A stretch of DNA of 64,000 nt, taken from NCBI RefSeq assembly GCF_048403405.1, contig NZ_CP183129.1; one strand, 5' to 3'. Below are positions 24,001 to 27,000 of the stretch, piece by piece. Position 1 is the stretch's first letter. Each line of letters opens with the position of its first letter. Made by a program: the position numbers. The DNA is from Escherichia coli (GTDB lineage Bacteria > Pseudomonadota > Gammaproteobacteria > Enterobacterales > Enterobacteriaceae).

Positions 24001-27000
24001 GAACGTCCTGCTGAACATTCTTGCATCTCAACTCAGGCTCTCTGTCGTGCAGGAAGGAAAAACCACCTATGTCCTGCTTTCCGAAATAAACAATATCACG
24101 CTGCCTGAACTGAATGCGTGCTACAGCCAGAAACTGATAAGATGGCATGAGCAATCCTTTGGCTTATAATGTTCCCTGTTGCTGAGACGGATTATTCAGT
24201 GGTGGTATCGCAGTATGCCCGTCACCCCCGCTTCTGCATGAGGGTGACGGAGGAAAAGTAAGTGTGCGGAGGCCCGGGAGCGTTATGAATCAACAGGCGT
24301 ATAACAGGTACTCGTCAATCATCAGTTCCAGCTCGCGCTTTTCCCGTTTGCGCGCCACAGCCCAGTTTTCAAGCTCTGCATGTGATTTATGCTTTAACTC
24401 TTCAGTCCAGGGCTGCATGGAGTGGGCACACATCAGATCATACCAGCACAGCCATATCAGCGTGTGGTAGAGATCACGATCGTCGAAACGCCGGAGCAGG
24501 CTGTTCAGCCTGTTTGCCAGCCGGTTTTCACCCAGACGATGTAGCTCACTGAGTAAAACGCCGCCCAGATTAAAATGTGTAAGCAGCATGATTTCATGGG
24601 TCTGAATGCTGGTCATTAACCCTTCCTGAATGGCAGGAATGAACGGTGGTGTTCCCGGGTTGACGACCTGATAGAGTCCCTGTGGTGCCACTGAGATGAT
24701 GGTGCCTTTTTCTGGCAGAAAAAAGTGGGCCAGGGTCAGGCGGTGATAACCATGAAGATGCGGAGCCCCCATTCCATGAGCGACGATAAGCCTCGTCACG
24801 TTTGTCATCCATTTCTGATGCTGGATGAGCAGCAGCTCACACCGGTTTTCAAGTTTTTGCATAATATTCTCTCCTTTAGCGCGCAGCAAAATGCCTCCGG
24901 GGGCCGGATCATGCCTTTGCTGCGGTTGAACGGATAACGGTCAGGAATTACGGACGGGACTGTGCAATACGCGCCTGCAGCCAGGCTTCCACTTCACTTT
25001 TCAGCCATCGGGAACTGCGGCCCAGCTTGATGGGGGCCGGAAAGGCCCCATCCCTGATGAGTTTGTAAAACCACTTATCGGTCAGGCCAGTCAGTTGAGT
25101 GATAAACGCCATGTCGACCATCTGGTCATCCATCAGTGAAACTGGGGTGGTCATGAGAATGTTCCTCCGGATGTTGTTAATCTCAACCGGCGTTGGTGAT
25201 GAAAACAACGCACCACCTTCACCGGCATAACAACCGGGGAGAAACGTAAAAAATAATCGGGAATGTGACCGTCAGGAGATAAACGGGGGGATTGCGGTGG
25301 CTGAGCCGTACCGGTATGTCGGGTGGTTGTTGCGAAACGATGCTTCCGCACGCGATAAAGGAGGGAGGACTTTCGTGAGACAAGGGGAAAACTAGCGTTC
25401 TGATAATTGCAGAGTTGTTTTTGAAGGCGGTTGTGGTATATCAGCCTGTGACCTGTGGGCAGGCGACAGTTATCACTGGTGGGATAAGACTGTCTGATTG
25501 GTATTATAAATATATAAGAGAGATCAAACACATGAGTTCATATATGTGAAATAAATCTGTGAGTGTGATCAGCAGACCAGTCTACCCAGTAGCAACAGAT
25601 TGCGTTGTACTCACAGGGTTATCCCTGATAACTGGCGTATAACCTGCGTACATAAAACGTACCTGCAATGCACCTGAACAGAGTGCATTAAGCATCCGCC
25701 TGAGCGGTAAACGTATCCGATCTGGTGAGTGACAGTCTGAGAGCATTCTCAGTAATCGCCCCCTTGTATCCTGGAAATTGGTTAAGAGCGATTAGATTTG
25801 GCAAGGTGTATGCATCCAGCAGCTTAACACCTCAGCTAACTGGCTGGTTACCTTCAGGTTGTCGCAATGGCATCGGACATCCGGTGTCGGATAACTAAAC
25901 GTAGCGTTAAGGCGATATTGCTGAGAGACCGGTTAAGTGGTGGCACGGGAGTAATGAGTTTGGGGAGGGTACCAGAATGCCAGTCAGGTGCGGTATGCTG
26001 GCAGTATCACGTTGATTGCAGCATAAAGTAACGAGAGACGAATGGAAGTTAAAACCAGAGCAGTTCCGTCGTTGTTCATCCCGGGAGACGCTGGAAAAAG
26101 TGATTACCCGCACACGTTATAAACTTACCCCTGCGGAGCTGGAAGCCTTTAACTCTGCGGTCGATCACCGGCTGGCAGAACTGACAATGAACAAACTTTA
26201 CGATCGCGTGCCGGCTTCCGTCTGGAAATATGTCACCTGAATCTTGAATCCGCGCTACGATGACTCTGGTGTTATCTGTGCACCGGAAGATCGGGAACAT
26301 TAAGCAGTATAACGGCAACAAAGAATTCGAAATCAAAAGGGAATGGTGTACAGAGGGGCAGGCGTTCAGGCATTACCGGCCTGTATCTTCTGAAGGGGAC
26401 TCGTATTTGTCGGGGCTGAGTATTCCGCTCGATTCGATCACGGATTGGCAGAAACCTGACTGTGATTGATTCAGGTACCATTTTGCAGGGATCCGGTGCG
26501 TTACTGTCTGGCACAACAAACGCAGCGGGTCGCTCTGCCCCGCCGACTCCTGATAATCCCTCCCCTGTAACCTACTGCAACAGTACAAATACACTGACGC
26601 CTGAAACGGTAACCAGAATCAGCACCAGCAGTAACGTCAGTAAACAGAGCAGACGATCGGTCTTCCGGTAATAACCGAAGGGGTCGACAGCACCACAATA
26701 CGGGCAACATACTGTATTATGAGTAATTGCGTTACCACAGTCCCTGCACTTCTTTTTGCGTATCACGATCGCTCCCTCTCCACGCCTTATCCGTAACCTG
26801 TTTTTTACATTAAAAAAACAACGCCGGGAATTCAATCGTCAGTCCGGCGATGACCGTTCGGGTTATCACAGAGTGCCTGAGACAGTGTCCTGCCGGAGGT
26901 CACCTCAGGGGCTCTGCGCATTTTTTACGACGTGGTTATTCCGTATGAACCATACGGAGATTTAACCATGACCTACAAATACAACCCCTTCTGGCAGCAA

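Follow-up and report, generated by a model that had tools for sequence, protein, structure and literature searches.

A 64-codon gene for a predicted membrane-anchored zinc-ribbon protein in a uropathogenic Escherichia coli pathogenicity island

Introduction

A small gene on the minus strand of the 64,000-nucleotide stretch of Escherichia coli DNA analysed here (the window; a 100% match to E. coli CFT073) can be read from three different codons of one frame, giving a product of 64, 65 or 87 residues, and the question arises which of these starts is used and what kind of protein results. According to the original prediction, the gene begins with a GTG behind a strong Shine-Dalgarno (SD) sequence, has been mis-called as a longer ORF, and encodes a zinc-ribbon membrane protein reminiscent of toxins or immunity proteins.

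The 64-codon gene, which lies in a uropathogenic E. coli pathogenicity island, is real and has already been catalogued and annotated, and its product appears to be a very small zinc-ribbon protein anchored in the membrane. As an accessory gene it is ordinary and uncharacterised and leaves the current understanding unchallenged; it also illustrates cleanly how a start codon turns over (ATG to ATC, with the adjacent GTG probably taking over) and offers a tractable candidate for studies of small membrane proteins in uropathogenic strains. The features of the locus are listed in Table 1.

Table 1. Coordinates of the small gene, its parts and its divergent neighbour in the window.
Feature	Coordinates	Strand	Remarks
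Small-protein CDS, likeliest translated form in CFT073	26572..26766	minus	GTG start (26766..26764), 64 codons plus TAG (26574..26572)
Spurious N-terminal extension (23 codons) in the mechanical 87-aa ORF	26767..26835	minus	TTG at 26835
Shine-Dalgarno sequence GAGGGAG	26772..26778	minus	5 nt (CGATC) 5' of GTG 26766
ATC codon, site of the probable ancestral ATG start of the family	26767..26769	minus	used by RefSeq as a non-canonical start (65-codon CDS)
Predicted C4 zinc ribbon, residues 7-24 (CRDC-x10-CPYC)	26695..26748	minus	cysteine pattern
Juxtamembrane motif GYYR(K/N)TDR, residues 31-38	26653..26676	minus	conserved
Predicted C-terminal transmembrane anchor, residues 39-63	26578..26652	minus	25-residue hydrophobic tail, one residue beyond
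Intergenic region shared by the small gene and the YagK/YfjJ-like gene	26770..26967		198 bp, likely regulatory
YagK/YfjJ-like gene (RefSeq 'inovirus Gp2 family protein')	26968..27537	plus	PF11726 at 1.2e-47

Results

Deposited forms of the gene

All elements of the original prediction were found at its coordinates, namely the ORF with its GTG at 26766 and the preceding GAGGGAG, the CxxC…CxxC ribbon and the transmembrane helix at the C-terminus. The frame of the small gene is the only one that is open in every intact allele, and its 64-residue product reads MIRKKKCRDCGNAITHNTVCCPYCGAVDPFGYYRKTDRLLCLLTLLLVLILVTVSGVSVFVLLQ.

The RefSeq CDS (C_RS30345, 26769..26572, WP_001547002.1) has 65 codons, beginning one codon earlier than the GTG form, on ATC; this entry, in UniRef A0A0H0M1C6, is called 'hypothetical protein', represents the same gene and is identical from residue 2 on, while one source names the product 'predicted nucleic acid-binding Zn ribbon protein'. 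The exact 64-residue GTG form is also deposited publicly (e.g. AGC85239.1, on 72 contigs), and the 65-residue product appears in 10,699 blocks of a collection of about 15 billion proteins, with all ten sampled copies intact. The same DNA thus has entries of both lengths, and the annotation pipelines are inconsistent on this gene. As RefSeq differs from the GTG form by a single codon, the 64-residue form is itself deposited and the 87-residue protein has no entry in the collection, the gene cannot be said to have been mis-called as a longer ORF.

Probable start-codon turnover in the CFT073-type alleles

The predicted duplex of the GTG at 26766 with the anti-SD sequence has an energy of -7.7 kcal/mol, which is in the top 3% of the 5,997 NTG triplets in the window. 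In the alleles with an ATG start the SD is GAGGAGG, reaching -12.7 kcal/mol. Hence the SD claimed for the GTG is indeed present and good, but its description as strong has to be toned down, since it is not exceptional compared to that of the related alleles.

The codon immediately 5' of the GTG is ATG in five E. coli loci (L004-L008) and in a Salmonella locus (L014), and ATC in the remaining three E. coli loci (L001-L003), as well as in all ten sampled contigs with the 65-residue entry. In L004-L008 and in Salmonella, ATG-GTG follows GAGGAGG; all 13 CFT073-type alleles that we saw have ATC-GTG. We infer from this distribution that the ancestral initiation site of the family was GAGGAGG-N5-ATG, one codon 5' of the GTG, and the ATC start in RefSeq has apparently been propagated from homologues bearing the ATG. 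This ATG, now ATC in the CFT073 clade, had been overlooked in the original prediction.

The CFT073-type alleles would thus have undergone three changes, namely the replacement of ATG by ATC, the weakening of the SD and a one-nucleotide deletion in the leader. The first two leave the GTG as the only canonical start. Given this, its SD and the frame open in every intact allele, the GTG is, as originally proposed, the most plausible start in the CFT073 allele; translation most likely begins there, probably at reduced efficiency. As the initiation region is degraded in this clade, the CFT073 allele may be poorly expressed or silent. A promoter scan found no consensus sigma-70 promoter 5' of the small gene on the minus strand. 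A GC-rich hairpin after the stop codon (about 26525..26543) folds no better than shuffled sequences (z = -0.38) and is absent from the type-2 alleles, so we do not claim a terminator.

The 87-codon frame is the longest one open in CFT073, and one might suppose that initiation at its TTG yields the true product. This start has essentially no SD, as the original prediction had noted: at -3.2 kcal/mol it lies at the 32nd percentile of the NTG triplets in the window. The extension is open in L001 and L003 only, where one T is missing between 26784 and 26783; the frame is open because the CFT073-type alleles dropped this base of the leader. In L004-L008 it is closed by an in-frame TAA (window positions 26789..26787) seven codons 5' of the ATG, and in L002 an additional T in the T-run shifts the TTG out of frame. 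Thus, the 87-codon version (26835..26572) is merely a mechanical maximal ORF, an artefact of a one-base upstream deletion; with no SD, closed in other alleles and absent from the protein collection, it has effectively been refuted already, and we find it scarcely credible as the real product.

Predicted zinc ribbon and membrane anchor

The cysteines are arranged as C7-x2-C10-x10-C21-x2-C24, with two more at C20 and C41, and the paired CxxC motifs with a short spacer correspond to a two-knuckle C4 ribbon; it is from this pattern that we predict zinc binding. In the alignment C7 and C21 never vary, and C10 and C24 are conserved in at least 90% of the sequences, with ligands broken in some alleles (CCPGY in L004, CRDS in P0009). 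AlphaFold2 models the ribbon region with low confidence (pLDDT 52-58). Residues Y32, Y33, R34, T36, D37 and R38 of the juxtamembrane motif are invariant as well.

The maximal Kyte-Doolittle mean over 19 residues is 2.97 (residues 45-63), and AlphaFold2 predicts a helix over residues 29-63, with pLDDT of about 93 in the tail. The segment before the helix is net-positive (eight K/R vs three D/E). Among the 398 stop-to-stop frames of at least 60 residues in the window, three contain CxxC-x(5-25)-CxxC, and only the small gene combines it with a strong hydrophobic stretch; there are no paralogues of the gene within the 64-kb window.

A single transmembrane segment at the extreme C-terminus, no signal peptide and a positive N-terminal part are together the predicted architecture of a C-tail-anchored protein. 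The topology would be N-in, C-out, judging from the positive-inside rule and from the dependence of a Cys4 zinc site on reducing conditions such as those of the cytoplasm. ElaB, YqjD and YgaM are bacterial C-tail-anchored inner-membrane proteins. The small protein resembles them in the predicted cytoplasmic N-terminal domain, the single helix at the extreme C-terminus and the missing signal peptide, but there is no sequence relation (no Pfam match to their family), and the part predicted to lie in the cytoplasm is much smaller and of another kind.

We also considered a zinc-binding anti-sigma factor (ZAS) and rejected this candidate, as a ZAS needs H-x3-C-x2-C within about 80-90 residues, whereas here we see H16-x4-C21-x2-C24 in a cytoplasmic part of 38 residues. 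The annotated neighbourhood contains no sigma factor gene, while an adjacent ECF sigma factor would be expected for a ZAS.

Selection acts mainly on the soluble half

In codons 1-38, dN/dS is 0.08-0.29 with a significant excess of synonymous changes (Fisher's test, p = 0.005 to 3e-7), i.e. the ribbon half is under purifying selection, and GYYRxTDR has been preserved in four allele lineages in spite of synonymous changes in its codons. The alleles vary in their C-terminal half: there are three very different C-terminal types, all of which keep the frame, GYYRxTDR and the hydrophobicity (Kyte-Doolittle 2.8-3.0), with the stop codon 0-3 residues past the helix. In contrast to the constrained soluble half, dN in the transmembrane half is about equal to or above dS. 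Positive selection (dN/dS >1) in this half was rejected, as the lineages are near saturation and hydrophobic-to-hydrophobic replacements count as nonsynonymous. Thus, it is chiefly the soluble ribbon and the juxtamembrane motif that are under selection, rather than the membrane helix. These patterns, selection on the ribbon half and a hydrophobic tail kept in divergent alleles, together with the synteny in Salmonella, support the earlier proposal that the short form is a real gene for a protein with a putative zinc ribbon and a single transmembrane segment. The constraint is not absolute, given the broken cysteine ligands and the frameshift in one of the eight aligned E. coli loci (L002).

The selection pattern bears on the possibility that the protein is a small membrane toxin (type I-like, or an abortive-infection or lysis effector), whose helix would harm or depolarise the inner membrane and whose expression is kept low. 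Like the type I toxins Hok, Ldr, TisB, Ibs, ShoB and ZorO, it is small (64 residues), has one very hydrophobic helix and is encoded in horizontally acquired DNA, here a mobile island; moreover, the initiation changes in the CFT073 clade could be taken to attenuate a harmful product, and the convergent neighbour Hha is a silencing cofactor. However, a helix with dN close to or above dS beside a constrained soluble half argues against a pore-former; to our knowledge, the known type I toxins show the opposite selection pattern and lack a soluble part that folds. In the ancestral allele the ATG stands behind an SD that is very strong and unobstructed, and no antitoxin candidate was found: no RNA family was found by Rfam in 25800-27300 at E up to 1, and the sequence has just one antisense promoter-like site (26684..26713), as many as expected by chance (1 found, 1.0 expected), which overlies a ribbon segment rewritten in L003-L005. 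Nor did PADLOC-DB 2.0 match the small protein of either type, the YagK/YfjJ-like protein, the two DUF7828 proteins or a 199-aa neighbour. A toxin is therefore unlikely, and the toxin or immunity function suggested originally finds no backing in these searches or in the selection pattern.

Relatives of the protein

The Pfam scan of the small protein yielded only sub-threshold generic zinc ribbons (11-15 bits vs cut-offs of 23-29; E = 0.02-0.4), such as Zn_Ribbon_1 (PF13240), Zn_ribbon_3 (PF13248) and DZR (PF12773), which share with it two CxxC knuckles about ten residues apart. NCBIfam gave nothing above the cut-off. No PDB sequence matched the family profile significantly, the best one being the zinc ribbon of reverse gyrase (E = 0.06). 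An exhaustive search of 1.84 billion representatives with the profile left only about 25 below 1e-10 as the true family, and those inspected were all variants of the enterobacterial protein. The literature search retrieved no publication on the small protein or its accessions; the 'inovirus Gp2 family protein' occurs, in the literature found, only in gene tables of pathogenicity islands with its function given as unknown.

In PHROGs there were only weak matches to families annotated without a function. Of these, phrog_38187 (E = 7e-6), phrog_14275 and phrog_10292 have the same extreme N-terminal ribbon, basic linker and one transmembrane helix, but they are 136-178 residues long with a domain past the membrane, whereas the small protein stops at the membrane. 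DUF2116 (PF09889, 'probable treble clef') and four proteins with a DPFG motif (P0085, P0094, P0096, P0103) have the same size and order of elements. The pattern of the latter is C-x-DCG…C-x-x-C-x-S-x-DPFG-basic-TM, with DPFG after the second knuckle as a shared feature. Still, their similarity to the small protein is weak (E = 1e-5 to 1e-3) and their contexts are heterogeneous; the DUF2116 HMM does not match the CFT073 protein, and the DPFG relatives themselves score below its threshold (17-22 bits vs 26.8).

If the protein were an exclusion or immunity factor of a mobile element, blocking a competing element, phage or toxin at the membrane, one could point to its place in the island backbone, the weak matches to phage proteins of the same layout, the distant DPFG relatives lying within conjugative T4SS clusters in two of the four contexts recovered, and the allelic diversity of the C-terminal half. 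On the other hand, just 0-3 residues protrude beyond the membrane, leaving little surface for the recognition of incoming factors, PADLOC has no match, and the protein is essentially missing from phage and genuine plasmid records. Moreover, given their weak scores and their overlap with opposite-strand genes, the DPFG relatives may not be homologous or even real. We regard an exclusion function as very unlikely.

Genomic neighbourhood and distribution

The small gene is part of the backbone of a CP4/P4-like island module inside the CFT073 pathogenicity island. The order in the module is YfjI, an AlpA-like regulator, Hha, the small gene, and then the divergent YagK/YfjJ-like gene and the DUF7828 zinc-ribbon genes. 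At each of the 19 related loci examined, among them Salmonella, where synteny is retained, the YagK/YfjJ-like gene adjoins the small gene divergently, and the DUF7828 genes come after it wherever the flank is long enough. This synteny could reflect linkage in the island backbone rather than a functional link.

Among 5,426 complete E. coli genomes, about 3,500 carry homologous DNA, frequently more than once, which amounts to some 6,500 copies; the module occurs in roughly two thirds of the complete genomes, and the setting is the conserved backbone of pheV/pheU/selC-type pathogenicity islands. No homologue of the small gene was found in the K-12 islands CP4-57 and CP4-6. The gene is essentially absent from the phage collection, where a single phage record matches, over a fragment of 20 residues, and from the plasmid collection, where eight 'plasmid' records match, several of them megabase-sized.

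The intergenic region between the divergent genes diverges less (K 0.07-0.18) than the synonymous sites of the small ORF (dS 0.3-1.5), which makes a regulatory role of this region likely. The same comparison would fit a CFT073 gene that is a decaying or silent relic, its sequence kept by the youth of the clade and by an overlapping cis-regulatory constraint of the YagK/YfjJ-like gene. The loss of the ATG, the weakened SD and the leader indel, all specific to the CFT073 clade, agree with decay, as do the frameshifted and IS-disrupted variants that are common in low-membership clusters. However, the ATC-GTG initiation region is carried by two different intact ORF bodies (L001 and L003), the 65-residue product is listed thousands of times and was intact in every sampled copy, and the GTG, with its SD 5 nt away, is still usable. 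Besides, substitutions concentrate at synonymous sites family-wide, which constraint at the DNA level does not explain. Hence we consider a relic improbable.

A possible role at the inner membrane

The explanation that we prefer, giving it somewhat better than an even chance as a whole, is that of a genuine, already annotated small gene of the island-module backbone, which starts with GTG in CFT073 and encodes an N-in tail-anchored protein. As to the mechanism, the helix could be largely a generic membrane anchor, and the constrained ribbon with the juxtamembrane motif might bind a cytoplasmic partner, a protein or a nucleic acid, holding it at the inner membrane. We propose this tethering with low confidence. 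The most economical candidate for the partner would be a product of the co-inherited divergent YagK/YfjJ-like and DUF7828 genes.

A more specific version would make the small protein the membrane part of the island module (with the Rep-like YagK/YfjJ protein, two DUF7828/Zn_ribbon_11 proteins and an Hha paralogue), tethering the Rep-like protein or the island DNA for the control of replication, maintenance or defence, the changes in the initiation region of the CFT073/ExPEC clade then being an adaptive down-tuning; this version in full we consider quite improbable. Returning to the general tether, the anchor itself carries some signal: its final third (VS-x-VSV-F/Y) shows conservation, and hence the helix is not purely generic.

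The small gene and its annotation

The product of the small gene comprises 64 residues, in which four cysteines (C7-x2-C10-x10-C21-x2-C24) are followed by a basic stretch and a 25-residue hydrophobic segment, leaving one residue before the stop. The hydrophobic tail has a Kyte-Doolittle 19-residue mean of 2.97 and is modelled by AlphaFold2 as a confident helix (pLDDT about 93); the zinc ribbon is modelled with low confidence (pLDDT 52-58). The window has 398 stop-to-stop frames of 60 aa or longer, and no other combines CxxC…CxxC with such a hydrophobic stretch. The pairing of the GTG-proximal Shine-Dalgarno (SD) sequence with the anti-SD (-7.7 kcal/mol) is in the top 3% of the window's 5,997 NTG triplets, while the TTG opening the 87-codon ORF, a mechanical maximal frame, has -3.2 kcal/mol (32nd percentile). 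Thus, the original prediction described the sequence correctly (GTG at 26766 with GAGGGAG upstream, a 64-residue product with a four-Cys ribbon and one hydrophobic helix), including the lack of an SD at the start of the 87-aa ORF.

Coordinates of the small gene and of the features around it
Feature	Coordinates	Strand	Remarks
Small ORF, GTG start codon	26766..26764	minus	read from sequence
Small ORF, SD GAGGGAG	26778..26772	minus	5-nt spacer to GTG
Small ORF, TAG stop	26574..26572	minus	read from sequence
RefSeq CDS C_RS30345, WP_001547002.1	26769..26572	minus	65 codons; hypothetical protein
Shared intergenic region	26770..26967		198 bp
A/T-rich palindrome TTTTTTTAATGTAAAAAA	26796..26813	minus	conserved
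Perfect inverted repeat CCGTATG-AAC-CATACGG	26941..26959	plus	directly upstream of ATG 26968
YagK/YfjJ-like gene, start in RefSeq and all homologues	ATG 26968	plus	189 aa; behind GGAG
YagK/YfjJ-like mechanical ORF	from GTG 26932	plus	201 aa; over-extended relative to RefSeq
First DUF7828 (+Zn_ribbon_11) gene	27667..28390	plus	
Second DUF7828 (+Zn_ribbon_11) gene	28306..29880	minus	truncated per RefSeq; abuts IS66 transposase
Hha paralogue, island-borne	26016..26240	plus	PF05321, 7.6e-27
Conserved block between hha and small-gene stops	~26290..26345		about 55 bp
Mechanical ORF covering this block	26260..26469	plus	no Pfam match
Stretch of ~70 bp downstream of small gene	26417..26487		
Copy of this stretch	21772..21836		80% identical, E = 1.5e-11; near GTPase-family gene

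Positions 26300-27100 match the chromosome of E. coli CFT073 (NC_004431.1) at 100% identity, near 3.485 Mb. The claim that the gene had been mis-called as a longer ORF proved wrong, as the RefSeq CDS has 65 codons and, according to exact-sequence look-up, the 64-aa form is already deposited (e.g. AGC85239.1; 72 contigs), the 65-aa form occurs in 983 contigs, and the 87-aa form is absent from a collection of ~15 billion proteins. One source names the 65-aa form "predicted nucleic acid-binding Zn ribbon protein". The small gene is an uncharacterised accessory gene that is real and already annotated, and the preference for the short form was justified.

Aligning nine alleles shows how the long frame arose. 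In the CFT073-type loci L001-L003, one T is missing between 26784 and 26783; in the other E. coli loci, L004-L008, the same T is present, creating an in-frame TAA seven codons upstream of the start, and in L002 the T-run has one additional T, which places the TTG out of frame. Given these differences, the 87-codon extension is an accident of the leader indel.

Start codon

All called homologues start with MVIRKKK. The initiation region reads GAGGAGG-N5-ATG-GTG in L004-L008 and in the Salmonella allele L014 (SD energy -12.2 to -12.7 kcal/mol), and GGAGAGGGAG-CG-ATC-GTG in L001-L003. Since ATC-GTG was found in 10 out of 10 sampled contigs carrying the 65-aa entry, these entries use a non-canonical ATC start, presumably copied over from homologues with ATG. 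Within the CFT073 clade, no canonical start other than GTG has an SD at workable spacing (5 nt), and the GTG is the most likely start judging from the sequence. The predicted start at 26766 is probably right for the CFT073-type allele; L004-L008 and Salmonella L014 have the ATG one codon upstream.

The use of GTG would then be a takeover of the ancestral ATG site, and the CFT073-clade initiation region is weaker than that of the other alleles. Between L001 and L007, five differences cluster within ~24 nt spanning the SD and start, compared to one or two per 30 nt of the neighbouring ORF; this may reflect down-tuning or drift. It is possible that in CFT073 specifically the gene is a silent relic.

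Selection and mosaic structure

In codons 1-38, dN/dS between allele lineages is 0.08-0.29, with a significant synonymous excess (p = 0.005 to 3e-7), and no frame other than the annotated one is open throughout the intact alleles. The N-terminal Cys4 domain is constrained and net-positive, and its invariant juxtamembrane motif GYYR(K/N)TDR (residues 31-38) is retained via synonymous changes in four lineages. The sequence of the C-terminal hydrophobic helix is free to vary, except for the last third: there are at least three C-terminal allele types, and all three keep the frame, a hydrophobic helix of ~25 residues (Kyte-Doolittle 2.8-3.0), and a stop codon at most three residues beyond it. One of the eight aligned E. 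coli loci (L002) is frameshifted, a Cys ligand is lost in some alleles (L004, P0009), and truncations or fusions occur in many clusters with few members. From these comparisons we conclude that the gene is real and that selection acts on its protein, with attrition of the kind ordinary for island genes.

L007 and Salmonella L014 have identical alleles across the leader and the initial ~60 nt of the ORF but differ by 30-45% from there to the end of the ORF and in the 3' flank; the recombination breakpoints within the ORF are sharp (26572..26700 and the 3' flank). Between the CFT073 type and type 2, divergence begins at about nt 105. The gene is thus mosaic.

Family and possible distant relatives

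A word-indexed search yielded 58 clusters, for which the sources name only E. coli, Shigella, Salmonella, and Klebsiella. When 1.84 billion representatives were searched exhaustively with a profile, only about 25 scored below 1e-10, and all those inspected were variants of the enterobacterial protein. Weaker matches (E = 1e-5 to 1e-3) include small proteins with C-x-DCG…C-x-x-C-x-S-x-DPFG, a basic linker, and a TM helix, which match Pfam DUF2116 only below threshold. Two of the four recovered contexts of these DPFG-type proteins are inside conjugative T4SS clusters; the others are a chromosomal site and a contig of 1.2 kb. For a 145-aa distant hit, the context look-up gave no information. In the T4SS contexts, L012 (6001..6237) and L016 (6001..6219), the putative genes are called on the strand opposite to Dot/Icm-like and F-type tra operons and partly overlap neighbouring genes. 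The small gene and its product have no significant match in Pfam, NCBIfam, PADLOC, Rfam, or PDB; weak PHROG matches are to phage proteins of unknown function with the same N-terminal layout.

Genomic neighbourhood

Among 5,426 complete E. coli genomes, 3,633 contain DNA similar to 26300-27100, and those that do have a median of two copies; a narrower 321-bp query (small ORF and leader) still retrieves 3,499 genomes. The divergent YagK/YfjJ-like gene (PF11726, 1.2e-47; "inovirus Gp2 family protein" in RefSeq) is present in all 19 related E. coli and Salmonella loci examined, followed, wherever the flank is long enough, by one or two DUF7828/Zn_ribbon_11 genes. An Hha paralogue is usually convergent with the small gene, as it is here, and most longer loci have an AlpA-like regulator and YfjI further out. 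The YagK/YfjJ-like gene of CFT073 shares 36-39% identity with yfjJ and yagK of K-12, in which the islands CP4-57 and CP4-6 lack the small gene. An island survey lists an inovirus Gp2 family protein, YfjI, and an hha homologue in pheU/pheV/selC insertions and gives the function as unknown (PMC6174562).

In the window, the two DUF7828 genes are tandem and overlapping, and their products have no match in PADLOC or PHROG. The annotated length of the Hha paralogue varies from 49 to 74 aa across related loci, and in some it is frameshifted.

Possible function

The protein would be a tail anchor with the N-terminus inside and the C-terminus outside. We tentatively suggest that it may serve as a membrane tether or adaptor, whose ribbon would bind a cytoplasmic partner; the obvious candidates are products of the co-inherited divergent YagK/YfjJ-like and DUF7828 genes. 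The original prediction likened it to toxin or immunity proteins. A toxin would fit the weakened initiation region seen in the CFT073 clade, but this reading is less likely because of the constraint on the soluble domain, the lack of an antisense RNA or antitoxin candidate, and the strong open SD with ATG in the ancestral allele. Support for an exclusion or immunity factor is circumstantial. The toxin/immunity assignment is unsupported.

Intergenic and flanking DNA

The shared intergenic region has K of 0.07-0.18 (0.01 between E. coli L007 and Salmonella L014), which is below the synonymous-site divergence of the small ORF and hence suggests regulatory constraint. It contains the A/T-rich palindrome; a promoter scan revealed no consensus sigma-70 promoter on the minus strand. 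The 3' arm of the perfect inverted repeat overlaps the GGAG SD of the YagK/YfjJ-like gene, and in L003-L005 both arms are retained with a loop of 8 nt instead of 3; the overlap and the retained arms suggest a conserved operator or a translation-controlling hairpin.

The block downstream of hha stays conserved between type-1 and type-2 loci that otherwise diverge, and the indels flanking it are not multiples of three; candidates for its identity are a 3'UTR element of hha, a small RNA, or a gene remnant. The ~70-bp stretch and its copy, about 4.6 kb away, may represent a short repeat belonging to the island backbone.
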